From NCBI GenBank assembly GCA_016719515.1, contig JADJYZ010000037.1:34630-98629 (forward strand): 64,000 nt of DNA, in the 5' to 3' direction. The notes beneath the pieces were generated by a model. That model was given only the letters and a program-made list of their open reading frames with translations, did not search any database and was not told the DNA's origin. Positions within the stretch are counted from its first letter, which is position 1. The number at the start of each line of letters is the position of its first letter. The position numbers and the translations under genes are program-made. Of the stretch, positions 5,281-61,100 are shown piece after piece. Source of the DNA: Deltaproteobacteria bacterium (GTDB taxonomy: Bacteria > Myxococcota_A > UBA796 > CAJQPC01).

Positions 5281-6591
5281 TCAGGCGTCCGCTTCAGGCG
5301 GGAGATCATCAGCGATCTCGTTCGCCTGCTTCTTGCGCTGGGAGTCCTCATAGATGAGGGCGTCCAGCACCTTGTCCGCGTGGCTGATGAGGGAGGCGGC
5401 CTCCTCCTCTTCGACGTCGAGGATCGACGCGAGCTCGTAGGGCTCGGCGTCGGTGAGATCTTTGACGGTGCGGAAGCCGTGGCGGATGAGCAGCTCGATG
5501 GTGTCGGCGTCGACACCCTCCAGGCGGGCGAACTCGCCGCGGGCGAGATCGTTGAGCTCGGCGTGCCGGGTCTCGGAGTAGATGTCTACGCGCCAGCCGG
5601 TGAGCTGGGCCGCGAGGCGCACGTTCTGGCCGCGGCGGCCGATGGCCTTGGAGAGCTGCTCGTCGGGGACGATGAGCTCCATGCAGTGCGTGTGCTCGTC
5701 GATGTAGACGCGGGACACGCTGGCCGGGGCGATGGCGTGAACGATGAACCGCGCCGGATCGGGGTGGTAAGGGATGATGTCGATCGCCTCACCACGCAGC
5801 TCTTGCACCACCGCCTGAACGCGTGAGCCCTTGAGGCCCACGCAGGCGCCGACCGGATCGACGTCGGGATCCGTCGAAGACACGGCGATCTTGGCGCGGA
5901 AGCCCGGCTCGCGGGCGCAGGCCTCGATCCGCACGATGCCCTCGTAGATCTCCGGCACCTCAAGCTCAAAGAGCTTCATCAACAGGCCGGGGTGCGAGCG
6001 CGAGAGCACCACCTGAGAGGACTTCGCCGCCCGGGTGATGTCGAGCACGTAGGCCTGGATGCGGTCGCCTTGGCGGTAGGTCTCGGAGACCACCTGCTCA
6101 CGGCGGGGGAGGATGGCCTCGGCGCGGCCCAAGTCCACGATGATGTTGCCCTTCTCGAAGCGCCGAACGATGCCGGTGATGAGCTCACCTTTGCGGTCGC
6201 GGAACTCGTTGAAGGTCATCTCACGCTCGGCGTCGCGAACGCGCTGGATGATGACCTGCTTGGCCGTCTGGGCGGCGATGCGGCCCAAGCCCTCGACGTC
6301 CATCTTGATGCCCAAGGAGTCGCCGACCTCACAGTCCGGATCGAGGGCGCGGGCCTCCTCGATGAGGATCTCGGTGTCGTTGTTGTCGAACTCCTCAACC
6401 ACCGTCTTGAACTCGAACAGCTCCACCTCACCCAGCTCCTCGTTGAACTGGGCCTCGATGTCGCGCTCGTTGCCGAAGCGCTTCCGCGCGGCGGCGACCA
6501 TAGCGGACTCAAGAACCTCGATCACCGCGTCGCGGGGGATGTTCTTCTCGCGGTGGAGCATGTCGATCTGTCGGGCGAGCTCGCTGATCAT
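5281..6591 (-). CDS. nusA: transcription termination/antitermination factor NusA
   Basis: 436 aa; N-terminal domain plus S1 and KH1/KH2 domains ([21 protein letters not shown]...). Confidence 0.95.
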
Positions 6592-10280: not shown

Positions 10281-11359
10281 GCCTGCCGCCGGGCCTGCGC
10301 CGCCTCGCCATCGCCGTGCCCGACCTCACCCGGCCCCTGGACACCGTGAGCGTCTTGGCCACCCTGCGCCGGGCGCTGGGGGAGCGCGCCCCCGCGGAGA
10401 TCACCGTCGTCGTGGGCCTCGGCCTGCACCGCCCGCTCACCGAGGCCGAGCTCGCGCCGATGCGCGCCGCCTGCGGCTGGCCCGTCGTGAACTCGAACCC
10501 CGACGACACCGCCGATCTCGGCCTCGTCCATGGCATCCCCTGCCAGGTCGCCCACCCCATCGCTGAAGCCGAGATGACCCTCGCCATCGGGGTTGTGGAG
10601 CTTCACCAATACGCGGGCTTCTCCGGCGGTCACAAGGCCAGCGCCGTTGGCTGCGGCGGTCGTGACACCTTGGCCGCGCTGCACGCCCGGGCCATGGTCT
10701 GTGACCCCGAGGTGCAGGTGGGCCGGGTGGAGGGCAACCCCTTCCGCGAGGCCGTAGACGCCTTGGGTGAGCACAACGGCACCCGCCTGGCCCTGCTCTC
10801 TCTGGGCGATGGGCGCTGGACCTTGGGAGAGCCCCGGGCCGCCCTGCGCGTCGCCGCCGCCGCCCAAGACCCGTGGTGGACGGTGCCCGAGCCCGTCTCG
10901 GCCTGCATCCTGCGGGTGCCCGAGGCCAAAGCGGCGAACTTTTACCAGGCGAGCCGCGCCGCCACCTACCTCGCGCTCTCGCCCTCCCCTCCCCTCATCG
11001 ACGGCGCGCGGATCGTGCTCGACGCGAGCTGCCCAGATGGCGCCGGAGATGGCGATGGGGAGCGCGCCTTCGCATCTCTCATGGCGATGACCGCGCCGCC
11101 TTGGCAGAGCTTACTCACCGGGCCGGTGCCCTCTGGCGCGGGGCTGCAGCGGGCGTTTATGCTCGCGCGCCTCGCCCAGCGGTATCACCTCATCGTCGCC
11201 GGCTGTGATCAGCCCGAGGCCCTGCAAAGGCTGGGGGTTGAGGCCACGTCTTCCCCCGCCTCAGCCGTCGCGCCGGGGGCGCTCACCGTCAATCAGCCGT
11301 TCACCCGGCTGCCTCAGCTTCGGCGGCCACCACCGGCTTCGGGGACGGCGCCGGGCTGA
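10181..11359 (+). CDS. LarA-like (DUF2088, lactate-racemase N-terminal domain family) protein; the true start is probably near 10247 (GTG)
   Basis: RRLAIAVPDLTRP (DxTRP-type motif), HQYAGFSGGHKA; the ORF-track start overlaps the upstream gene, so a later alternative start is likely. Confidence 0.55.
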   Translation: MAGGLVDPVDRTSGALAEPPRVVGSLDAALAGLSLPPGLRRLAIAVPDLTRPLDTVSVLATLRRALGERAPAEITVVVGLGLHRPLTEAELAPMRAACGWPVVNSNPDDTADLGLVHGIPCQVAHPIAEAEMTLAIGVVELHQYAGFSGGHKASAVGCGGRDTLAALHARAMVCDPEVQVGRVEGNPFREAVDALGEHNGTRLALLSLGDGRWTLGEPRAALRVAAAAQDPWWTVPEPVSACILRVPEAKAANFYQASRAATYLALSPSPPLIDGARIVLDASCPDGAGDGDGERAFASLMAMTAPPWQSLLTGPVPSGAGLQRAFMLARLAQRYHLIVAGCDQPEALQRLGVEATSSPASAVAPGALTVNQPFTRLPQLRRPPPASGTAPG

Positions 11360-12769
11360 GGCTGCCCAGGCCCACCCACAGGTAGCCCAGGCCAAACAGC
11401 GCCAACAGCGGCGCCGAGCCCCAGGCCCCGGCGAACATGCAGGCGACGGCGCCGAGGAGCTGCCCCAGGCCGAGGGTGATCTCAACGATGGCGCCGCCGT
11501 CGCCGCCCAAGGCGTATCGACCGCGCCGCCGGACTCGCCCCGTTTGGGGGTGCGCACAAAGGCCCCGACCTCGCCAAAGAGCGCCTCAAACACCGCCCGG
11601 CTCTGGTTCACGGCCATGCCCGCGCCCAAGGCCATCGCCCACGGCACCCGGCCCAGACGCCGCGCCCAGTCGTTGTGGGTTGCCCCGGCGCTCACCCCGT
11701 AGAACACGCTCAGGGACGTCATCGCCACGGTGAAGAACACGGCGTGGAGCGGCTCCACCAGGGGGTGCCCCACCCGCTGAATCGCCGCGAGGGGCGTGAT
11801 CACCGAGAGCAGCAGCACCAGGGGATACGCGAGGTTCGCGCAGAGGTGCGCCGTGGCCTCAAGCTTCACCGGCCAAGGGGCGGGCGAGCGCCACAGCCTC
11901 GGCAAGAGCTTCTTCGCGGTCTGAATCGAGCCCTTCGCCCAGCGGCGCTGCTGGCTCTTGAACGCCAAGATGTCGCCGGGAAGCTCAGCGGGCACGGCGA
12001 GATCCGGCAAGTACACAAACCGCCAGCCCACGAGCTGGGCGCGGTACGAGAGGTCGAGGTCTTCAGTGAGCGTGTCACCCTGCCAGCCGCCGGCGTCGTG
12101 AATCGCCTCCCGGCGCCACAGCCCCGCCGTGCCGTTGAAGTTGAACCAGCGCCCGGAGCGCGCTCGGGCGGCGTGCTCGATGACGAAGTGCCCGTCCAAC
12201 AACATCGCCTCCACCCGGGTGAGCCAAGACTCTCCTTCGTTGAGGTGGGTCCAGCGCGCCTGGACCATGCCGATCTCTGGGCCGAGGGCGGGCACAGCGC
12301 GGCGCAAAAAGTCGGCGGGAGGCACAAAGTCGGCGTCAAAGATGGCGATGATCGAGCCCTTCGCCCGGCTGAGCCCCCAAGCCAAGGCCCCGGCCTTAAA
12401 GCCCTGGCGGTCGGGCCTGCGCAGCACCGTGACGTCGAGGCCCTTCGCCCGGTGGCGCGCGGCGGCGGCTTCAGCGAGCGGGGTGGTGTCGTCGTCGCTG
12501 TCGTCGAGGATCTGCAGCTCCAGGCGATCCCGAGGCCAGTCCAGCGCCGCCGCGGCGTCGATGAGCCGGGTGATCACATACCGCTCGTTGTAGACCGGGA
12601 GCTGCACGGTGACGAGGGGCAACGCGCGCTCCTCCAGCGTCGTGAGGGTCGGCGCCTGCCGCCGGGTGCGCCAATACCGCGAGGTGAGCCACAGCCGATG
12701 CAGCCCGTAGAGCGAGAGCGTTGAGGCGAGCAGCGCGTGACCGCCCAGGAGCAAAAGTTCCGTCACCAC
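11301..12769 (-). CDS. processive family-2 glycosyltransferase (cellulose-synthase-like/CslA-type) with an apparent frameshift near 11505-11540
   Basis: PVYNER, ILDDSDD, FDADF (DxD), QQRRWAKGS (QxxRW), FVRTPK (FxVTxK-like). After this the main frame becomes R/W/P-rich junk, while the -1 frame (ORF 11301..11510) encodes the expected C-terminal TM helices. Confidence 0.7.
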
Positions 12770-48955: not shown

Positions 48956-51923
48956 TCACTCCTCAAGGGGGCTCAGCAGGTCGAGCGCCTCGTCCATCGA
49001 GTACGCTCCGATCCTGAGTGGCCCAGCCCCCTCTCCGAGTGAATTTATCCACGCAAGAACTTGACCTTTTGGCAAGGTGAACCGCGCCCCCGCCGCCGCC
49101 AAGGTCGCGAAGCCCTCGAGCTGAATCGGCGCGCTCCGTGCGGCGAGCAAGGCGTTGAGGATCGTGGACAGATCGCCTTCGCCCGTCGCCGCGAAGCGTA
49201 AGGCCGAGGCCGAGGCCACGCCGGGCTGAATGCCTTGGGCGGCGAACAAGGCCTCCGCCGCCTTCGCCAGGGCCCCCGCGGCGGGGTGCCCAGCGCGCAG
49301 GGCGATAAAGCCTTCAGTGAGGTTCACCCGGGCGCTCAGAAGCCAGTCCCGAAAGGGCTCGACGAGGGCCACGAGCTCCAGATCGGGCGCCGTGACCACG
49401 CCCCGACGGGCCGCCGCCGAACGTTTGAGCCACTCCGCCCGGGCCTCCTCGACGATGAGCCCCGCGGCCCGGGCCTCGGCCTGAATCTGCTCGGCCAGGG
49501 CCTCCATGCCCTCGACGTCGCCGCGCTCGCGGTCGGCCAAGGCGGCGGCGTCTAACGAGACGAGGCGCCCGGTGAGGCTCGCCCGACGGTCGGCGGCCAC
49601 CCGGTGCAGGCGGCTGGCCTCGGCGAAGCGCCCGGAGAACATGTGGTGGCTCGCCAGCCAGGTCATCAGCCGGGCCTCGGCCTCGGGAGAGGACCGCGTC
49701 GCGGGATGGGCGGCGACGCGTGAGCAGCGCGTCCTGAACCTCAACGGGCTCCCCGCGCACGCCGCGCACCTGGGCGGCGAAGGCCGACATCGCCAGCTCG
49801 GGATCGTCGTCAAAGAGGCCGGGAGGGCCGAGGGCCTGGACCAGCTCGTCAACACGCCGACCGTGGGCGGCGCGGTGGGCGCGCACGAGGCGCTCCAGGC
49901 GGTGATCTCCCCGGGCGACCTCGGCGGCCTCGTCGAGCCCCCGCCGGTCGGCCCGGGCGAGGAGGAGCCGGGTGAGGGTCTCGCGGACAAAACGGGACTC
50001 TGGCAGCTCTCGGCGGGCGGTCCACAGGGCCCGGATGGCGTCGTTGACGGCCCCAGCGGCCAGCAGGCGCGGGATGAGCGCGGCCAGCTCCGTCTCGAGC
50101 GCGGCGGTCATCCCGGCGGCGAACAGGTGACCGAGGCGGCCCTCCGCGCCCGGGGGCAAGGACTCGGCGATGCGGGCGCGGGCGGCGCGCAGGCGCTCGG
50201 GGCTCCACAAGACGACGGGCTCGGCCAAGGGGCGCGGGAGGTCCGCCTCCCAGGCGATGAGCCCTCGGGCGGCGAGCTCGGTGAGCTGCAAGCGCAGCTC
50301 CCACACCGGCCGCTCCATGAGGCGGCCCACACGCTCGACGGTCTGGTGGGGGGCGGCGAGGATCAGCCAGCGGAGGAGCTCCTCTTGCTCCAACGGCAGG
50401 GGCGGGGCGCGCTCCGCCGACCAGGGCAAGACCGCCTCCGCGCCGAGGCGCTCCAGGCTGGGGAGGCTCACCGCGAGGCCGTCTGGGGTGCTGGTGATCA
50501 CGCCGTCCCGCTCCCAGCGGGCGAGCAGCTCAGCGACCCGACCCGCGAGGCCCCCGGTGCGGCGCAAGACCTCCTGCGCGGCGCGGCTGGGGACGTGGTG
50601 CAGGCGCTCGCTGCCCACAAACAGCGCGGCGAGCGTCTCCGGCGAGACCGTCGGCAGGCGCACGCCGCCCGGCGCGTCACGCACCCGAAGCAGGCCCCCC
50701 CGCGGCGCCGCGCCCAAGAGCGCGGCCTGGGTCCAGGGGTCGAGCTGGGCGAAGTCATCGGCGAAGAGCGGGCCCGGCAGGGTGTTGAAGGCCTCGGAGA
50801 CGGCCTCCGGGCTGAGGCCCTCCTCAAAGATCCGCGGCGGGAGGACGGCGCGCAGGGAGGCGTAGGGGCGATCGGCGGGGACCGCCCAGACCGCGCTGGG
50901 GAGCCGCCGGGCCAGCTCCAAGAGCGCGCGGGTGCGCCCGGATCGCCGCGGGCCGCCAAGATCGACGGTCTCCCCTTGGCTGAGGCGCTCGGCGAGGGCG
51001 TCGAAGAGCGAGGGATCACCGAGGATGGCGCGGGTGCTGGCGCCCAACAGGGGCACGCCGCGCAGGGCTTGGAGCGCCTCCGCCGCCGTCGGGCGCTCGG
51101 CGGGATCCTTGCGGAGAAGCCGCATGATGAGGTCGGCGGCGACGGCGGGGATCTCGGCGGCGCGCTGATCCACGGGCACGGGCAGGTCGTTGAGCTTGGA
51201 GAGCCCCAGGCTCAAGGCGTCGTCGCCGAGGTGCGGAGAGGCGCCGGTGAGCGCCTCGTAGAGCATCACACCCACGGCGTAGAGGTCGGCGCGGCCGTCC
51301 ACACGCACCCGGCCTTGGAGCTGCTCCGGCGCGAGGTAACGGGGCGTGCCGATGGGGGCGCCCACCTGGGTCAGCGCGAGGTCTTGGGGCTCACGCTGCG
51401 GCGCCGCCTCTCCCGAGACCAAGCCAAAGTCGAGGATCACCGGCCAGCCCGCCTCGGTGACCAGCACGTTCTCTGGCTTGAGGTCGCGGTGGACGAGCCC
51501 GAAGCTGTGGACCTGGTGGATGGTCTCTAAGAGCGCCTCGACGATGGGGCCCAAGACGGACCACGGGCCGCGGGGGAAGGGGCGCCCCTCTATGAGCGCC
51601 ATGCTGATCCAGGCCCGCCCCGCCTCGGCCTCCCCATGATCGTAGAGCGTCACCACCCCCGGCAGCCGGGCGAGGTCCAAGGCGGCGACCTCCCGCGCCC
51701 AGCGCGCCCGCCGCGCCGGGCCGCCCAAGGAGAGGATCTTGAGGGCCACACGCTCGCTGCGGGTGGGGTCCACCACCTCCCAGACCTCCCCAAAGCCGCC
51801 CGCGCCCAGACGCCGGGTGAGCGTGAAGCGCCCAAAGCGCGCGCGCGGGACAAGCTCCAAGGCGCCAGAGGGGCTCGTCCACCCGTCCGCAGAGGGCCCG
51901 CTCGGGGTGGGATCAGCGGCCAT
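48956..51923 (-). CDS. Ser/Thr protein kinase with a large C-terminal P-loop NTPase-like and helical repeat region; frame disruption near 49681-49692
   Basis: N-terminal Hanks kinase (GAGGFGEVW...VALKIL...HRDLKPENVLV...DFGL); the C-terminus continues in ORF 48956..49990 (RLMTWLASHHMFSGRFAEASRLH...) after a 1-nt slip in a C-run. Confidence 0.8.
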
Positions 51924-52025: not shown

Positions 52026-53528
52026 TTGGAAACCTCCTCCCACGACCTCGGCCCAGCCTCCGCCGCGCTCGGCGCCCTCGAGGCGGGAGATCTCGGCCCC
52101 CTCGTCACGCTCTTGAGCGCGTGGCGGCTCGTCGAGGATCCCCGGCTCGTCGAGGCCGCCGCGCGGCGTCTGCGGGGTCGTGACGGCGCGCTCCTCTCGG
52201 CGCGTACGTTGGCCCGCCTGGCCGTCGCCGGGGCGCGCTGGCGGGAGGCCGAGGCCAGCTTTGAGCCGCCGCTCACCACCGACGCCGCCCTCGATGGTCA
52301 GGCCGCCCTGGCCTGGACCGCCTGGTTCGCCGAGGACTTCTACAGCGCCCAGCCCTACGACTATGCCGTGAACCAGCTCATCCCCCGGGTTCAGGCGGTG
52401 TTTCAGGGGGTGCTCAGCGCCGCCGAGCTGCCGCCAAAGGCGCGCCGGGACACGCTGATCGAGCTGGGGGAGGGCGCCTTCGCCACCCTGCTCACCGCCC
52501 GGGACGAGGGGAGCCTGCCCGCGTGGCTCGACATCGCCACCCGCGCCCTGGAGCGTGGCCCCGGCGGCCCGCTGCGCTGCCTCAGCCTCGTGCTCAGCCC
52601 CCAAGAGCGCGCCTCCGCCGGTCTCTGCTTCGCCAGCCGCCGCCTCTGGACGCCGACCTTGGCCGCGATCTGGCCCGACGACGCCCCCCGGGGACGCGCG
52701 GCCCGGCTGAGCGCCTGGCTCCGAGACGACCCCGAGGCCCTGCCGCGGATCACCCACTTTCACCTGCTGAGCCGCCTGATTGAGCGCGCGGCCCACGCCG
52801 GTCCCGAGGCCTTGGGAGACGCGGAGCTGCGGGCGATCTGCCGCCAGAACGTCGCCCGGGCCCGCGCCCGCCTACGCGCCACCCTCGCCGCCCGGCCCGA
52901 GGCCGTGCTCTCGGCGCTGTTGGGCCTCGACGCGCTCCACGCGCGCACCCAAGACGCCGCGGGCCGGTACGCCTACGCCTGGGTGAACCGTGAGCTGACC
53001 TTCGGCCTGTCCATGGGCCACGCCCCTCGGGTGACGCCGCGCTGCGTGGCCCCGGATCCCCTGCCAGAGGGCGCCACCGACGCCGATCCGGCGATGTCCA
53101 TCGACGAGGCGAAGGGCTGGGTGCTGCTGGTGATCTTCCGGGGCCGCCTGGGGCACCTCTGGCGCTGGGTGTACGAGGGCACCACCGGCGACCGGGACTC
53201 GGTCTGGGGCGCCTTGCTCAAGTCCGAGCTGCCGCCGTCTCTGCGTGAGCCCGGCCTGCACCGCCCCCGCCTGCGCCAGACGCTTCGTGCGGAGCTGCCC
53301 GAGCTGCTCTGGGAGCTGGAGCCCGTGCTCAACACCTGGGCGAACCAAGACCTCTCCGAGCCCCGGCGGGTGAAGGCGCGGGTGCTCAAGCTCTTGCAGT
53401 CCACGGCGCCCACAGGCCAGCGCTGGCCCGCCCGAGGGTACGTGGAGTCCGTTCAGCACGTCATCGACGCCCGTCGTCAATTGCAGCGTTGGTCGCGCCA
53501 TCTGGCGCCCGTCTTGCCGTCACCATGA
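52026..53528 (+). CDS. hypothetical Ala/Leu-rich protein (500 aa)
   Basis: Long ORF divergent from the kinase; no recognisable motifs. Confidence 0.5.
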   Translation: METSSHDLGPASAALGALEAGDLGPLVTLLSAWRLVEDPRLVEAAARRLRGRDGALLSARTLARLAVAGARWREAEASFEPPLTTDAALDGQAALAWTAWFAEDFYSAQPYDYAVNQLIPRVQAVFQGVLSAAELPPKARRDTLIELGEGAFATLLTARDEGSLPAWLDIATRALERGPGGPLRCLSLVLSPQERASAGLCFASRRLWTPTLAAIWPDDAPRGRAARLSAWLRDDPEALPRITHFHLLSRLIERAAHAGPEALGDAELRAICRQNVARARARLRATLAARPEAVLSALLGLDALHARTQDAAGRYAYAWVNRELTFGLSMGHAPRVTPRCVAPDPLPEGATDADPAMSIDEAKGWVLLVIFRGRLGHLWRWVYEGTTGDRDSVWGALLKSELPPSLREPGLHRPRLRQTLRAELPELLWELEPVLNTWANQDLSEPRRVKARVLKLLQSTAPTGQRWPARGYVESVQHVIDARRQLQRWSRHLAPVLPSP

Positions 53529-53541
53529 AGGAGGTGATCCC

Positions 53542-54162
53542 TTGCCAGAGAACGGAATCTCTGAGTTTGAGCTCAGCGCGTGGCTGCTCGGCGCGCTTGA
53601 TCCAGATCGTGCCGAGGAGCTGGCCCAGGCCGTCGCGCGCTCCCCGGCCCTCGCCGAGCGCGCCCGCGCGCGCCAGCGCGTCTTGGAGCGGCTGCCCACC
53701 TTACGCGCCCGGCCGATGCCCATCCCCGGGAGCGACTGGCGGGGGCAGCTCGTGGCGCGCCGTGTTCACGCCGGGAATCTCGGCGAGGACGCGCTGGGCG
53801 AGGGCCTACGCCCCGGCGACCGCGTGGAGCTGCGGGTGAGCGCCTTGACCGACCCCACCCGCCGAGAGCTCGTGGCGATGACCCGGGACGCTGAAGGCCG
53901 CTGGGACGTGGTCTGGCCCGAGCACGCCGATGAGCGCACCCCCGTGGAGGCCCTGGAGCGTGACGCCGACGGCGCCTTGAAGGTGAGCCTCTCGGCCTCT
54001 CCCACCATCGGCACCCAGCGCTGGCTGCTGGTCTTCCCCGAGACCCCCTGGCCTGTGGACTGGAGCTTGCCCCGGGCGATCCGCTGGGAGCAGCTCATGG
54101 CGCGCATCTCGACCGGCGCCGTGCCGCTGTTCACCTTTGAGCTGGAGGTGAGCGCGCCCTGA
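53542..54162 (+). CDS. anti-sigma-factor-like protein (RskA-type N-terminal domain, no Zn motif)
   Basis: EFELSAWLLGALDPDRAEELAQAVARSPALAERARA resembles anti-sigma N-terminal domains; 13-nt gap from the upstream gene. Confidence 0.5.
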   Translation: MPENGISEFELSAWLLGALDPDRAEELAQAVARSPALAERARARQRVLERLPTLRARPMPIPGSDWRGQLVARRVHAGNLGEDALGEGLRPGDRVELRVSALTDPTRRELVAMTRDAEGRWDVVWPEHADERTPVEALERDADGALKVSLSASPTIGTQRWLLVFPETPWPVDWSLPRAIRWEQLMARISTGAVPLFTFELEVSAP

Positions 54163-54231
54163 GGAGGATCCCCGTAACGCGGGACGAACGGGCAGAGCGT
54201 TCACCAAGAAGAACGCCTCCCCGGAGCCCTC

Positions 54232-54783
54232 GTGTCCCCCTGCCGAGACCTCACGACCTGGCTGTCCACCTCACGCCCGAGCCTGCTCCGCCGCCTACGC
54301 CATCGGTTCCCGCGGGTGTGCGCCTCGGGCATCGAAGACGCGGCGCAAGAGGCCGCGCTCACCACCGTGCGCCTGAACAAGACGCCGGGATCTTGTGTGC
54401 AGCGCGCCTGGGAGCGGTCGGCGGAGGATCTGGAGCGCCTCGTGTTCACCTTCGCCTGGCGATCGTTGCGTGGGGAGCTGCGCCGGGGCGCCCGCCGGGG
54501 TCACTTTCACCCCGACGGCGTGACGGGCCACCGCGACGCCGCCGCCCAGGTCGAGGCCCAAGACACCCTGCGCCGGGCGCGTCGGCTCATCCCCGACGCC
54601 GCGCAGATTCACGCGCCGCGCACCGCCCCGGCGCTCTCCGCCGCGCTGGAGGACCGCCTTCGCACCGGGGACGACGATCTCGCCGTCGCGATCCGCCACG
54701 GCGTTCACCGCAGCGTGCTCTGCCGGGCGCGGCGGTGGATCTTGACGAGCTTGGTCGGCGAACCCAGCCTCAGGCGGCTATAG
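54232..54783 (+). CDS. divergent ECF-sigma-like protein (sigma-70 regions 2 and 4)
   Basis: DAAQEAALTTVRL...FTFAWRSLRGELRR (region 2-like); LAVAIRHGVHRSVLCRARRWILTSL (region 4 HTH-like); weak. Confidence 0.4.
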   Translation: MSPCRDLTTWLSTSRPSLLRRLRHRFPRVCASGIEDAAQEAALTTVRLNKTPGSCVQRAWERSAEDLERLVFTFAWRSLRGELRRGARRGHFHPDGVTGHRDAAAQVEAQDTLRRARRLIPDAAQIHAPRTAPALSAALEDRLRTGDDDLAVAIRHGVHRSVLCRARRWILTSLVGEPSLRRL

Positions 54784-54812
54784 TGCGCCGAGGTCAGGGC
54801 CCAGGAACCTCC

Positions 54813-55410
54813 ATGCACCACGTCACGTCGCTCCTTCGCGCTGGGCTTCTGCTCGGCGCCGCCCTCCCCTCCTCCGCCCTCGCCTGCAGCTTCATCGAGT
54901 ACGACGAGCACCTCATCGACGACACGATCGAAGACGAGGTCGCCCCCAGCCTGCCCAGCCTCGATGAGCTCGACATCAACCGCGGCGTCGGCCCCACCCG
55001 GGCGGGGTTCGGCTCTCAGATGAGCACGTCCTGCGACGATCTCGGCTGGATCACCCTGCGCCTGAGCGCTGAAGACGACCTCAGCCCGCCGGAGAACCTC
55101 GGCTTCGTCTTCGCCTTAGACACCGGCTCTTTGCCGTTCACCCTGCCGTCCGAGCCCGCGCGGCCCTTCGACGGGTCGATCACCTTCGTGTGGATCGACG
55201 GCGCCACAGACGACCAAGAGCCCATCGAGGCCACGGTCACGGTGAACACCATGGACGAGGCGGGAAACCTCAGCGCCGAGTCCTTGCTGCTCACGATCAG
55301 CGATGAGGGCAGCGAAGAGGGCGTCAAGGGCTGCTCCACGGGATCCGGCGCGCCGGGCCTGGGCCTTGGGCTGTTGGGCCTTGTGGCCTGGCCGCGCCGC
55401 CGCGGGCTGA
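54813..55410 (+). CDS. secreted acidic protein with a MYXO-CTERM tail, paralogue A; stop apparently lost, with read-through into paralogue B
   Basis: Signal peptide MHHVTSLLRAGLLLGAALPSSALA|C; C-terminal KGCSTGSGAPGLGLGLLGLVAWPRRRG; own TATAGT box 30 nt upstream. Confidence 0.6.
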
Positions 55411-55460
55411 GGCCGGGGGCGCCCGCTATAATCCAGAGAGGTCAGGGCCCCGGAACCTCT

Positions 55461-56068
55461 ATGCATCCCGTCAAGTCGCTCCTTCGCGCTGGGCTCTTGC
55501 TCGGCGCGGCCCTGCCCTCCTGCGCGCTCGCCTGCAGCTTCGCCTCCAATGAACAGCACCTCATCGACGACTCGCTCGACGACGTGGTTCCGCCGAGCCT
55601 CCCGAGCTTGGGTGAGCTGTCCATTCAGCGTTGGCACGGCCCCGTCGAGGTCAGCCCCGGCGTAGCGATGAACGACTCCTGCGGCGATCTCGGCTGGGTG
55701 ACGCTGTGGCTCAGCGCCGAAGACGACCGCTCCGCGCCGGAGAACCTCGGCTTCGTCTTCACCTTGGAGAGCGGTGAAGCGCCCTTCACATGGCCGACGG
55801 AGCCGATACGGCCCGCTGAAGACGGCATCCTGTTCATCTGGGTCGACGAGGCGACCGACGAACAGGAGCCCATCGAGGCCACGCTCTCGGTGAACACAGT
55901 AGACGAGGCGGGCAACGTGAGCGACGAGGCCTTGCTGCTCACGATCAGCGACGAGGGCAGCGAGGCGGAGGTCAAGGGCTGCCCACCGCCTCAGGCGCCC
56001 CGGGCCTCGGGCTTCTGAGCCTCGGCCTCGTCGGGCTCACCTGGCGTCGCGCCCGCCGCCAGGCCTGA
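55461..56068 (+). CDS. secreted acidic protein with a MYXO-CTERM tail, paralogue B; 1-nt deletion near 55980-55988 relative to A
   Basis: About 70% identical to A; MYXO-CTERM tail (GAPGLGLLSLGLVGLTWRRARRQA) encoded in the -1 frame after KGC; own TATAAT box upstream. Confidence 0.6.
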
Positions 56069-56095
56069 GCGGCGGCGGCGAGCGTCCGGCGAGGG

Positions 56096-56818
56096 TCAGC
56101 GCTTCTTCTTGCCCTTCGCGGCGGCGGCGGCGGCCTCTTCAGCGGCCTTCGCCGCGGCGGCGGCCTCTTCAGCGGCCTTCGCGGCGGCGGCGGCCTCCTC
56201 AGCGGCCTTCGCGGCGGCGGCGGCCTCTTCAGCGGCCTTCGCCGCGGCGGCGGCGGCCTCCTCAGACGCCTTCACGGCCTCTTGGGCCTCGGTGATCACC
56301 TTGAGCTTGTTGAGGTTGGCCTCAAAGTCGGCGCCGACGACGGTCTCGATCTTCTTGGCGAAGAGCTTGGAGATGCCCTTGAGCTGGCCGTCATCGGACC
56401 AGGTCACCTGCATCCCGCCGTTCGTGGGGCTGAACGTGATGCTGCCCTTGTTGGCGTCGCTGCCGGGCTTCATCAGCCAGATGTCGTACTTGACGCCGCC
56501 GGTGGGGTTGACCTCGGTGAGCGTGAGCTTGCCCCAGCCCATCTCTTTGCCGTCCCACTCCATCGTGTGGCCGACCTGACCGGGCTCGCCGGAGTAGGTC
56601 CAGACACACTCGGGGTCGTACTCGCTGTTCCAGACCGTCCAGTTGTTCCAGTTGTGGAGGTCGGCGACCTGGGCGATGAGGATCTCGGGCCGGGCCTTCA
56701 CCTGCACCGAGCGGTCGACGTGCCAGCTCTTTGAGGCGGCGATGGCGGGGGCGGCGCTGAAGAGGGCCGGGGCGGCGAAGGCCAAGCCAGCGAGCAAGCT
56801 GAAGGCGCGGAGGTTCAT
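56096..56818 (-). CDS. secreted SRPBCC (Bet v1-like) domain protein with a C-terminal (KAAEEAAAAA)n repeat tail
   Basis: Signal peptide AIAAS; SRPBCC-like core (WHVDRSVQVKARPEIL...); 33-nt tandem repeat encoding the A/E helix; KKKR terminus. Confidence 0.6.
   Translation of the reverse strand: MNLRAFSLLAGLAFAAPALFSAAPAIAASKSWHVDRSVQVKARPEILIAQVADLHNWNNWTVWNSEYDPECVWTYSGEPGQVGHTMEWDGKEMGWGKLTLTEVNPTGGVKYDIWLMKPGSDANKGSITFSPTNGGMQVTWSDDGQLKGISKLFAKKIETVVGADFEANLNKLKVITEAQEAVKASEEAAAAAAKAAEEAAAAAKAAEEAAAAAKAAEEAAAAAKAAEEAAAAAAKGKKKR
56109..56270. repeat. 33-nt tandem repeat, about 4.5 copies (GCCTTCGCGGCGGCGGCGGCCTCTTCAGCGGCC-like)
   Basis: Direct reading of near-identical 33-nt units; encodes the KAAEEAAAAA(A) repeats on the minus strand. 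Confidence 0.8.
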
Positions 56819-58166: not shown

Positions 58167-61100
58167 ATGCCCTCCTCTGCCTTCCCGATCGGGATCATCG
58201 GCGCCGCCTGCCGTCTGCCTGGCGGCGTTCGCCATCCCCTGGACCTCGCCGCCTTCCTCCGCTCCGGCGGTGACGGCATCATCGACGTGCCCCCCGACCG
58301 CTGGGACGTGGAGCTGCACTACGACGCCGACGACCGGCGTGGCCGGGCCTATGTGCGGCGCGGCGGCTTCTTGCACGACGACCCAAAACGGTTCGATCCG
58401 GCGCCTTTTGGGCTCTCCCCCCGGGACGCCGACGCCATGGACCCCCAGCAGCGGCTCATGCTGGAGACGAGCTGGGAGGCCATCGAGGACGCGGATCTCC
58501 CAATTGAGGCCCTGCGCGGCACGGCGACGGGCGTGTACATCGGCGGCTTCATGGGCGACGTGAACGCCCTGGTCGCCCACCCCGGCGGCCGCCACAAGGT
58601 GAGCCAACACACGGCGACGGGCTCGACGATGACGCTGTTGTCGAACCGCATCTCCTATGTGTTTGACCTGCGCGGGCCGAGCATGACCGTCGACACGGCC
58701 TGCTCCTCGTCGATGGTGGCCGCCCACCTCGCCTGCCAGGCGATCCACGAGGGCGCCTGTGAGCGTGCGCTCATCGGCGGGGTCACGATGATGCTCTCGC
58801 CACATTCGCCGATGATGATGTCCAAGGGGCGATTCTTGGCGAAGGACGGTCACTCCAAGAGCTTTGAGGCCGACGCCGACGGCTATGGCCGGGCCGAGGG
58901 CGCGGTGATGTTGCTCGTGGAGCCGCTTCATGTCGCCTTGGCCGCCGGGCGGAGGGTGCTCGCCGTGATCCGCGGCACGGGCATCAACCAGGATGGCCGC
59001 ACCGACGGCATCGCCTTGCCCAGCGGCGAGGCCCAGGCGCGGCTCTCTCGGGAGGTCTGCGCGCGGGCCGGGGTGAACCCCGTCGAGGTCGGGCTCATCG
59101 AGGCCCACGGCACGGGCACGCGGGTGGGGGATCCCATCGAGACCCGCGCGCTGGGTGAGGTCTACGGCGTCGGGCGACCGGCGGACAAGCCGCTGTACAT
59201 CGGCTCGGTGAAGACCAACATCGGCCACACCGAGGCCGCCGCCGGGCTCGCGGGGATGCTCAAGGCGGCGCTGTCGTTGGGCGCGGACGAGATTCTGCCC
59301 CAGCGCCCCCTGCGCGCGGCGAACCCCGACATCCCCTTTGACGCCCTGCGCCTCAAGGTGGTCGAGGCGCCGACGCCTTGGCCCGCAGGCCGTCGCCTCG
59401 CGGCGATCAGCTCCTTCGGGTATGGCGGCACCAACGCCATCGCGCTGTTGGAGGCCGCGCCGACCGCCCCGACGCGGGCTGAGCTTGAGGCCCCGGCCGA
59501 TGCGCTGCGCCTGCTCGCCGTCTCCGCCGACAGCACGAGCGGCCTTCGCGCCCGGGCGGGGCAGCTCTTGGAGGTGTTGGCGGGGCCTGAGGCCGACGTG
59601 GATCGCCTCGCGGCCACCCTCGCGCAGCACCGCTCCTTACGCCCCGAGCGTGGGGTGCTCACCGTGAGTGGCCTCGACGACGCCCGCGCGGCGCTCACCG
59701 CCCTGCGCGACGGCGCGCCGGATGAGCGGGTTCACCTGGGCCGCGCCTCCACCCGCCGCCCCCTCGTGTGGGTGTTCACCGGCATGGGGCCCCAGTGGCC
59801 GGGCATGGGCCAGCAGCTCCTCGACCAGGGCGGGGCCTTCGCCGAGACCGTCACCCGCGCGGCGGAGACCTTCGACCGGCTCTCCGGGCGCTCGATCTTG
59901 CACGAGTGGCGCCAGAGCGCGACGACGGGCCAGATGGCGCGGAACGACCTCGCCCAGCCCACGAACCTGCTCTTGCAGCTCGGGCTCATCGCCCAGCTCC
60001 ACGCCCGGGGCCTGCGCCCAGACGCGATCTTGGGGCACAGCGTCGGTGAGGTCGCGGCGGCCTACGCGGCGGGCGCGCTCAGCTTGGAGCAGGCCGTCGA
60101 GGTCGCGTTTCACCGCTCGTCGCTGCAGCAAGAGGTCGCCGGTCGGGGCGGGATGCTCGCGGCGGCGATGGACCTCGATGAGCTGGAGCGTTTTGTGCCT
60201 GAAGGCGCGGACGTGGCCGTGGCGGCGATCAACGCGCCGGGCTCTATCGCCTTGGCGGGCAGCGCCGCGGACCTGGACCGGGTCGAGCGCGCCTTGACCG
60301 AGGCCGGGCGCTTCGCCAAACGGATGACCGTCGAGGTGGCCTACCACAGCCCCACATGGACACGCTGCAGGACGGCTTCTTCGCCCGCCTGGGCCACCTC
60401 ACGCCCGCCGCGCCGACCTTGCCCTTGTACTCCCACGCTCACCGGGGCCCGGGTGGAGGGCGCGGTGCACGACGCGGCGTACTGGTGGGGCAACGCCTGG
60501 CAGCCCGTTCGCCTGCGGGACGCCGTCCGGGCGGCCTTGGGCGACGGCATGGAGCTGTTCTTGGAGATCGGCCCGCACCCCGTGCTCGGCGCGGCGATCA
60601 AGGCGAACGCCGCCGCCGCGGGCCGCTCGGCGCTGAGCTTGTTCACCCTCAAGCGCCAGACCGACGAGCCCCGGGCCCTCGCCCGCGCCGTCGCCCAGGC
60701 CCTCGCCGCCGGGGCCGAGGTGAATCGGGCGCAGCTCGCCCCGGCCCGGGCCCCGCTGCGCCTGCCGACCTACCCTTTCCAGCGCGCCCACCACTGGATG
60801 GAGTCCCGGGCCTCCCAAGACGAGCGCCTCGGCGCGCCCGGCGCGCACCCGATGCTGCGCCGCCCCTCGGCCCGCCTCACGCCGAGCTGGCGCTGCGAGC
60901 TGGCGGGGGCGCCCTTGGCCTGACTTCAGACCACGTCGTCGCCGGGCAGACCGTGCTCCCGGCGGCGGCCCAGCTTGAGATGATGCTCGCCGCCGCGGCC
61001 ACCCAAGGCGCGGCGACGGTGCGAGAGGTGCGCCTCTCCCGGGCCTTGGTGATCGACCACGACGGGATCAACACCTTGACCTTGGACCTCGGCGAGGGCG

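Follow-up and report, generated by a model that had tools for sequence, protein, structure and literature searches.

A tandem pair of small, acidic MYXO-CTERM protein genes in a deltaproteobacterial assembly

MYXO-CTERM proteins make up much of the myxobacterial surface, and roles are known for few of them, TraA being one. The sorting signal of this class is tripartite, its cleavage by the myxosortase MrtX is Cys-dependent, and it is associated with predicted lipidation and with surface display that depends on type II secretion (PMC11980579; bioRxiv 10.1101/2023.06.07.544157). C-terminal cleavage and lipidation at the Cys, together with surface exposure, are known only for TraA and a few Myxococcus xanthus proteins (PMC11980579). 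Here we analyse two adjacent genes in a stretch of 64,000 nucleotides (nt) from an uncultured Myxococcota bacterium recorded as Deltaproteobacteria bacterium (contig JADJYZ010000037.1, positions 34,630-98,629, forward strand; assembly GCA_016719515.1). This whole stretch is called the window, and coordinates are window positions. The pair belongs to the MYXO-CTERM class of surface proteins, which is already known, and represents a new, uncharacterised family within it. We consider it likely that a small surface-protein gene has undergone a real, lineage-specific tandem duplication and that the two frame defects seen in the copies are single-base consensus errors; the organism therefore most likely makes two separate, normally anchored proteins.

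The tandem copies and their frame defects

Copy A (position-1 gene; 54813-55406, + strand) and copy B (position-2 gene; 55461-56068, + strand) begin with ATG codons at 54813 and 55461 and lie within direct repeats that have a period of 648 nt (54777-54995/55425-55643 and 55019-55318/55667-55966; 77-78% identity). The copies are 75.6% identical over 591 nt in BLASTN (E 8e-120) and 67% identical over 173 amino acids (aa), without gaps, in BLASTP (E 2.5e-71). Such similarity is far above chance and the tandem duplication is real, in agreement with the initial annotation, which had described two tandem paralogues about 70% identical. Its assignment of a signal peptide, an acidic body and a MYXO-CTERM tail to each copy was likewise confirmed: in both copies the signal peptide ends in AxA|C, the mature body contains 32 Asp or Glu versus 4-5 Lys or Arg residues (isoelectric point 4.05), and the tail consists of GC, a hydrophobic stretch and RRR.

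The locus was compared with relatives whose records are labelled Myxococcota, Myxococcales, Bradymonadales or Deltaproteobacteria. In eight of them the same gene order is kept: a kinase gene (- strand), genes for proteins of 500, 206 and 183 aa, the family gene or genes, an SRPBCC gene (- strand), a gene for a pyridoxal phosphate (PLP) enzyme of Cys/Met metabolism and a polyketide synthase (PKS) gene. L001, a wastewater short-read contig that is 95% identical to the window in overall nucleotide sequence and 98-99.6% identical in its flanking proteins, has two separate intact family genes of 203 and 200 aa. The short-read contigs L018 and L019 share the A-B layout of the window with both genes intact, and the metagenome contig L020 has its own stop in the tail of the first copy, with a second copy after it. 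A single intact family gene is present in L006 (97.8% nucleotide identity) and in each of the more distant L007, L002 and L008. A metagenome scan returned distant single-copy members and L020 only, and no independent copy of the window's exact strain. Copy A is 96% identical to the intact 203-aa gene of L001 (P0001), and the intact orthologue of copy B is the 202-aa P0006 of L018/L019. Between the copies lies the duplication junction with a duplicated leader (55411-55460, + strand), where an alignment of the upstream regions identifies CTATAAT (55426-55432) followed by GAGGTCAGGGCCCCGGAACCTCT; the junction measures 50 nt in the window, 80 nt in L018/L019 and 21 nt in L001.

As read, the window departs from these relatives at two points. 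First, copy A has no in-frame stop. Its codon 198 is GGG (55404-55406), followed by CTG, and the ancestral stop TGA (55408-55410), which is part of the string GGGCTGA (55404-55410, + strand), sits one nucleotide out of frame, in the +1 frame; one open reading frame (ORF), 54318-56018, spans both copies. The first copies in L001, L018, L019 and L020 each have their own stop, and copy A of L018/L019 ends CGG GGC TGA (SRRRG*) at the TGA homologous to that at 55408-55410 in the window. The GGGCTGA of copy A is, judging from these alignments, probably a G2-to-G3 miscall, and its correction would give ...RRRG*. Second, copy B shows a window-specific deletion of one nucleotide (55980-55985, + strand): the codon TGC of Cys174 (55980-55982) directly abuts CCA (GGCTGC-CCACC), whereas a five-way alignment gives TGC T CCA in L001 and L006 and TGC A CC in L018/L019, so that a base, T or A, stands between TGC and CC in all four relatives and none in the window. 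As read, copy B stops at 56016-56018, and a change of frame is needed to follow its GC/hydrophobic/RRARRQA* tail as far as the TGA at 56066-56068; restoring a single base after 55982 takes copy B to that TGA with the ending ...GC(S/T)TASGAPGLGLLSLGLVGLTWRRARRQA*. Both lesions had been noticed in the initial annotation, and the out-of-frame stop of copy A with its run into copy B and the deletion that shifts the tail of copy B are indeed present in the given sequence. Their interpretation as reciprocal indels of biological origin is not borne out, as both defects are private to the window, L001, L006, L018, L019 and L020 are intact, and similar indels occur in three other conserved genes.

These further indels were counted as private against at least two relatives and are uncompensated. 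In the kinase gene, indels at 49717 and 49720 (net -2, private against both L001 and L006) move the frame from -3 to -1; in the PLP enzyme gene (Cys_Met_Meta_PP), C5 has become C4 at 57736 and the frame passes from 1 to 3; the PKS gene is affected at 60354 (C5 to C4), 60434 (+1), 60922, 61267-72 (G4 to G3) and 62833 (C3 to C2). The protein segments that flank each break are 72-98% identical to those of the relatives. Over the 48-64 kb stretch, for which the rate was computed, frame-breaking events number about one per 2 kb, are biased towards deletion and in many cases affect homopolymers. One published account describes indels of the homopolymer type as typical of Nanopore assemblies that have not been polished (PMC9262707), and the pattern in the window is the known signature of an under-polished long-read consensus. 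Since the two family defects are private to the window, and since similar private indels break the kinase, the PLP enzyme and the PKS, the lost stop and the frameshift are most probably assembly errors. Given these private single-base indels, ORF-based annotation is unreliable throughout the window. The relative L006 (JADKFE010000010.1), which is the GTDB representative metagenome-assembled genome (MAG) closest to the window and has contig names of the 'tig' type, contains private 1-nt indels of its own, placed at 48149 and 52695 in the comparison with the window and at 5862-5881 and about 1335 on its own contig. Since the 500-aa gene is split by one of these, MAGs of this group commonly contain frameshift errors.

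If the indels were real, the locus would encode one fusion protein of about 400 aa, either a decaying pseudogene pair or a two-domain precursor. In such a protein the body of copy A, the MYXO-CTERM helix and an Arg-rich cytoplasmic loop would be followed by a second membrane helix, supplied by copy B's signal peptide, and by the body of copy B, ending GCPPPQAPRASGF* without an anchor. The given sequence does read as a fusion; both bodies would face outward with the Arg-rich loop in the cytoplasm, and the membrane topology of fused two-copy proteins would be self-consistent. Several observations weigh against an explanation by error. The defect of copy A requires an insertion, whereas 8 of the about 10 window-specific events are deletions, and the deletion of copy B lies outside a pure homopolymer. 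The tail of copy A differs from that of L018 by 5 nt and from that of L001 by more, and is thus a truly variable, CGC-rich stretch among the relatives. Fused two-copy proteins found in other contigs also make a natural fusion possible: P0018 (397 aa) and P0052 (401 aa) are metagenome head-to-tail fusions of two complete copies, where the MYXO-CTERM helix and the Arg-rich stretch of the first copy lead directly into the signal peptide of the second (a tail-RRxxRR-signal-peptide hairpin). They could be natural membrane-hairpin polyproteins, or stop-loss artefacts in other assemblies. A bolder reading, which we hold to be improbable, takes the stop-less tandem fusions (the window, P0018 and P0052) as functional membrane-hairpin polyproteins that myxosortase and signal peptidase would cut into two surface proteins. 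Nevertheless, real indels appear unlikely to us. Besides the five intact relatives, the out-of-frame DNA of the copy B tail is nearly identical to that of functional tails, so any lesion would have to be extremely recent, and about eight further single-base indels in 15 kb break the kinase, the PLP enzyme and the PKS. Consensus errors in a pair of separate genes remain the preferred explanation, and the locus serves as a cautionary case: the lost stop and the 'reciprocal' frameshifts resemble unusual gene biology but conform to the way in which this assembly errs by indels, and neither a pseudogene nor a fusion should be annotated here without reads.

The protein family and its predicted route to the surface

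The MYXO-CTERM sorting signal of copy A (residues 173-197, GCSTGSGAPGLGLGLLGLVAWPRRR; 55329-55403, + strand) scores 20.5 bits against TIGR03901.2, over the curated cutoff of 20 bits, and frame-corrected copy B, at 19.7 bits, falls just under it. Higher scores were obtained for intact orthologues (P0001 26.5, L007 25.1, P0005 24.0 and L006 21.7 bits). P0006 and P0009, the B-type and C-type orthologues, gave no TIGR03901 match at E 0.01, which counts against the reading of two normally anchored proteins. The tripartite tail takes the form GC-STGSGAPGLGLGLLGLVAW-PRRR in copy A and, in the shifted frame, GC-.TASGAPGLGLLSLGLVGLTW-RRARRQA in copy B, and the tail Cys is nearly invariant across the family. 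The signal is C-terminal in every intact relative and not in the window as read, where copy A continues into copy B and the tail of copy B is out of frame; whether the window proteins carry it at their extreme C-terminus depends on the two indels being errors.

A word-indexed search detected 17 close homologues, all of about 200 aa and all from metagenomes or MAGs, and a profile search of 1.84 billion cluster representatives returned 1,542 clusters at E <= 1e-3, 280 of them at <= 1e-30. Nearly all of these matches are full-length, at about 170-260 aa and mostly about 200 aa. The conserved motifs of the family are A-x-A|C-S-[FLI], R-G-x-G-P, S-C-D-D-x-G, W-x-D-G-x-T-D-D-Q-E, V-D-x-A-G-N and the tail Cys. 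MYXO-CTERM tails were matched in 14 of 42 members, alongside one weak Synerg-CTERM and one weak JDVT-CTERM match. The body matched no Pfam or NCBIfam model, and none of the 42 members reached a Pfam gathering score; below threshold there were one He_PIG match (E 0.002) and four of OmpL47 type. The earlier statement that no domain is recognisable in the body thus stands as far as curated Pfam and NCBIfam models are concerned. An AlphaFold2 model of copy A (m97d91806e4fc) has a mean predicted local distance difference test (pLDDT) score of 73, with a core above 90, and the body is predicted to form a seven-strand-type beta-sandwich resembling fibronectin type III (FN3) or immunoglobulin (Ig) domains; with the family body, Foldseek against PDB gave generic sandwich matches only. 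On the evidence of this model the family is an undescribed passenger domain, of predicted FN3/Ig-like fold, on a known type of anchor. The analysis thereby defines a large family, in about 1,500 clusters, of FN3-like MYXO-CTERM proteins that are small and acidic and for which there is no curated model.

The N-terminal Sec signal peptide, recognised by its sequence features (basic n-region, hydrophobic core, AxA|C), is conserved in 164 family members, among which the two alanines occur in 132/164 and 145/164 and the Cys in 156/164. The invariance of the Cys right after the hydrophobic core would suit proteins that are N-terminally lipidated, with Cys25 as the lipobox Cys, and anchored at both ends or at the N-terminus alone. 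We regard this as very unlikely: the A-x-A before the Cys obeys the rule for signal peptidase I, which the cleavage site fits, and not the pattern [LVI][ASTVI][GAS]C, and a near-invariant second Cys (SCDD, residue 74) offers a plausible disulfide partner. In the family logo, A-x-A-C, the residue at -2, between the alanines, is often R, Q, E, W or H, and position -3 is hardly ever Leu; lipoprotein identity was therefore rejected.

The route by which two cleaved, C-terminally anchored proteins would reach the surface is modelled on the MYXO-CTERM literature (PMC11980579; bioRxiv 10.1101/2023.06.07.544157). Each copy would be exported by the Sec pathway, and signal peptidase I would cut after AxA, leaving an N-terminal Cys. 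In the periplasm the body would fold into a single acidic beta-sandwich of FN3/Ig-like type, in which Cys25 and Cys74 may form a disulfide. The MYXO-CTERM helix would retain the protein in the inner membrane with its Arg-rich end in the cytoplasm, MrtX would remove the helix at the Cys, for which lipidation is predicted, and the type II secretion system would then bring the protein to the outward side of the outer membrane.

Variation between strains and the upstream genes

Strains that are nearly identical differ in copy number, in the second copy and in the N-terminal segment of the protein. On the one hand, the divergence of position 1 (A-type) roughly keeps pace with that of its neighbours (77% identity to L002, versus 76-83% for the 183-, 206- and 500-aa proteins). 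On the other hand, copy B of the window is 52% identical to the second copy of L001, where flanking proteins are about 98-99.6% identical, and 78% identical to its L018 orthologue; in L001 and L020 position 2 holds a different, 'C-type' gene and not a B-type one. By these comparisons position 1 is the conserved orthologue, and position 2 is an optional and fast-diverging one. Because the AATCCAG junction and the position-2 tail are shared, the sequences indicate a single ancestral duplication. The L006 gene is chimeric and joins an A-type body to a position-2 tail. As the A-type tail start is retained in the single-copy outgroups L007, L002 and L008, the L006 locus has the appearance of a collapse to one gene through a recombination deletion at the shared GGCTGCTCCAC.

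Differences cluster in residues 26-72, which include the low-confidence loop 63-71. Between copy B and its L018 orthologue, synonymous (dS) and nonsynonymous (dN) divergence are 0.35 and 0.37 in residues 26-72 and 0.075 and 0.013 in the core, values that rest on small counts. The rise of both dS and dN in the same segment suggests mosaic recombination of the exposed N-terminal segment rather than selection alone. By analogy with the logic of the polymorphic TraA, the family might act as a strain-identity or antigenic surface tag, with a conserved FN3-like scaffold and a hypervariable, membrane-distal segment 26-72 swapped by recombination, and with a second slot gained, replaced and lost by unequal crossing-over; we hold this to be improbable. 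The variability at the level of strains is nonetheless the most interesting remainder of the analysis and a modest lead for studies of surface diversity and of kin or phage recognition.

The strings that the initial annotation reported upstream of each copy are all present: CTATAGT at 54778-54784, CTATAAT at 55426-55432 and (C/A)GGAACCTC before each ATG. The proposal that each copy has its own -10 box fared less well. CTATAGT, which together with a 29-nt leader occupies 54778-54812 (+ strand), includes the TAG (54781-54783) that terminates the 183-aa gene. CTATAAT is this stop-codon junction in duplicate and is not conserved, being TATCAT in L018/L019 and deleted in L001. A scan of 51.8-57 kb for sigma-70-type promoters yielded no sites and no -35 partner for CTATAGT; the same scan gave two 'terminators', both inside coding repeats and at the number expected from shuffled sequence. 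The leader itself (54784-54812 before copy A, 55433-55460 before copy B) reads GAGGTCAGGGCC(C/A)(A/C)GGAACCTC(C/T) in the two copies and, after CTATAGT, GAGGTCAGGGCC(C/A)AGGAACCTCC across the relatives. CTATAGT and the leader are nearly invariant in L001, L002, L006, L007 and L008, at about 80-98% overall identity, and exceed the adjacent coding sequence in conservation; this element may well be functional. A leader hairpin GAGGT...ACCTC was considered and dropped, as L018 (ACCGC) and L007 (ACCTA) break the pairing without compensation. The intergenic gaps in the four-gene run are short (13, 69 and 29 nt), and for this reason the family gene or genes are probably co-transcribed with the upstream 500-, 206- and 183-aa genes. 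In the intergenic region between the 206- and 183-aa genes (54163-54231), blocks kept in all relatives (GGATC, CGT(A/T)AC, CGGGACG and GCAGAGCGTTCA) may form a regulatory site.

The three upstream ORFs lie on the same strand as the pair, as had been noted earlier. The 500-aa protein (52026-53528, + strand), the first of the conserved four-gene run with synteny in L001-L008, has no family match in Pfam or NCBIfam. The 206-aa protein (53542-54162, + strand) weakly resembles anti-sigma N-terminal domains, with scores below threshold (for zf-HC2, E 0.11 and 13.1 bits where the cutoff is 22.2; for PRK13920, 19.1 bits where it is 225); as read from the sequence it has no H-x3-C-x2-C zinc motif, and no Cys/His motif in residues 1-40. 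The 183-aa protein (54232-54783, + strand) is all-helical and possibly a divergent factor resembling sigma factors of the extracytoplasmic function (ECF) type. Its homologues were found in this clade only. No Sigma70_r2, r4 or ECF model of Pfam or NCBIfam matched it at E 1 or better, and a sequence search of PDB returned noise. Its AlphaFold2 model (pLDDT 82) has eight helices, grouped in two blocks with a disordered linker (residues 87-101) between them, and more than half of the top 30 Foldseek matches are ECF sigma factors (SigH, SigL, AlgU, SigE, BldN), at non-significant E-values of 0.56-2 and a template modelling (TM) score of about 0.3. 'ECF-sigma-like' is thus a reasonable, weakly supported lead for this modelled fold and not a demonstrated membership. 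Of the anti-sigma/ECF-sigma-like pair in the initial annotation, what stands is the lead of ECF sigmas among the fold matches, whereas neither protein reaches the threshold of any hidden Markov model (HMM). The Ser/Thr protein kinase gene (48959-51923, - strand; Pkinase 117 bits) is divergently transcribed, encodes 985-989 aa in the relatives and is broken here at 49717-49720. A divergently transcribed Ser/Thr kinase would fit the kinase-regulated ECF systems that have been described.

It is possible, although doubtful, that, in line with the envelope-stress association suggested in the initial annotation, the pair is the output of an envelope-stress or ECF-sigma signalling module, in which the sigma-like protein of 183 aa would be under the control of the kinase and of the anti-sigma-like protein of 206 aa, and an internal promoter in the TATAGT/leader would drive the MYXO-CTERM genes. 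The kept gene order in all close relatives, the ECF sigma factors that dominate the fold matches, the weak anti-sigma signal and a 40-nt upstream element more conserved than the flanking coding sequence are in line with such a module. However, no HMM for sigma-70 region 2 or 4 matches and the Foldseek E-values are not significant, TATAGT overlaps a stop codon, and no ECF-type promoter (GGAAC-N16-17-CGT) was found upstream of the genes, where the sole GGAAC strings, at -11 relative to each ATG, are misplaced for a -35 element. Distant family members also stand in unrelated contexts, adjacent to an S8 protease, HSP20 genes or a sulfotransferase, and the 500-aa gene shows no homology at E <0.5 to the 520-aa gene upstream of one of them (L012); the association with these neighbours is therefore specific to the clade. 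Co-occurrence of the family with the sigma/anti-sigma-like genes, checked across genomes, accordingly holds in close relatives but not beyond this narrow clade.

Three further observations concern other genes of the window and the relatives. An 858-aa ORF at 45541-48117 (+ strand) matches domains of the major vault protein (MVP_shoulder 69.9, Vault_3 32.3 and Vault 23.9 bits), which is unusual for a Myxococcota MAG, and has an orthologue in L002. Downstream of the pair, 56096-56818 (- strand) encodes a secreted SRPBCC/Polyketide_cyc2 protein whose C-terminal 30-nt tandem repeats (56113-56260) encode units of AAEEAAAAAK type; strains thus differ in the number of repeats, the protein being 240 aa long in the window, L002 and L006 and 220 aa long in L003 and L004. 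The contig L015 (JGI Ga0558126_15135) is identical to L014 over its first ~7 kb and then encodes, at 11179-12540, a 1,410-aa retroelement-type polyprotein (zf-CCHC, RVT_1, RNase H, integrase); it is probably a chimeric assembly.

Comparison with described surface proteins and sorting systems

TraA of M. xanthus, the prototype of TIGR03901 (PMC11980579), resembles the family in that it combines a signal peptide with a tripartite tail, and copy A and its orthologues score at or above the HMM cutoff. Like the family locus, traA is polymorphic between close strains, and records of the family's relatives are labelled Myxococcota. The passengers differ, since that of TraA is a PA14-like variable domain with Cys-rich repeats, whereas that of the family is one acidic, FN3/Ig-like module of roughly 150 aa. 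MYXO-CTERM substrates often contain GCGC, whereas the family tail has a single Cys, and the B- and C-type tails stay under the HMM threshold. MXAN_6652 (NF041894) and MXAN_0125 (NF041936) are close to the family in size (169-203 aa) and type of anchor, and match it weakly over the C-terminal third. However, family scores are 11.5-18 bits against cutoffs of 200 and 65, and the matches come mainly from the tail; the family therefore does not belong to either of them.

Two wider comparisons can be made. First, the Ig-like and FN3 repeats of giant adhesins and glycosidases (SiiE BIg, chitinase FN3) differ from the family, which is a stand-alone single domain with an N-terminal extension and a sorting tail, adds the SCDD-x-G and W-x-DG-x-TDDQE motifs and is detected by no Pfam Ig or FN3 model. 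Second, GlyGly-CTERM/rhombosortase, PEP-CTERM/exosortase and LPXTG/sortase follow the same logic, in that a dedicated membrane protease cuts a C-terminal helix off a protein that remains bound to the cell, whereas MYXO-CTERM is distinguished from them by another signature motif and another enzyme family (CPBP).

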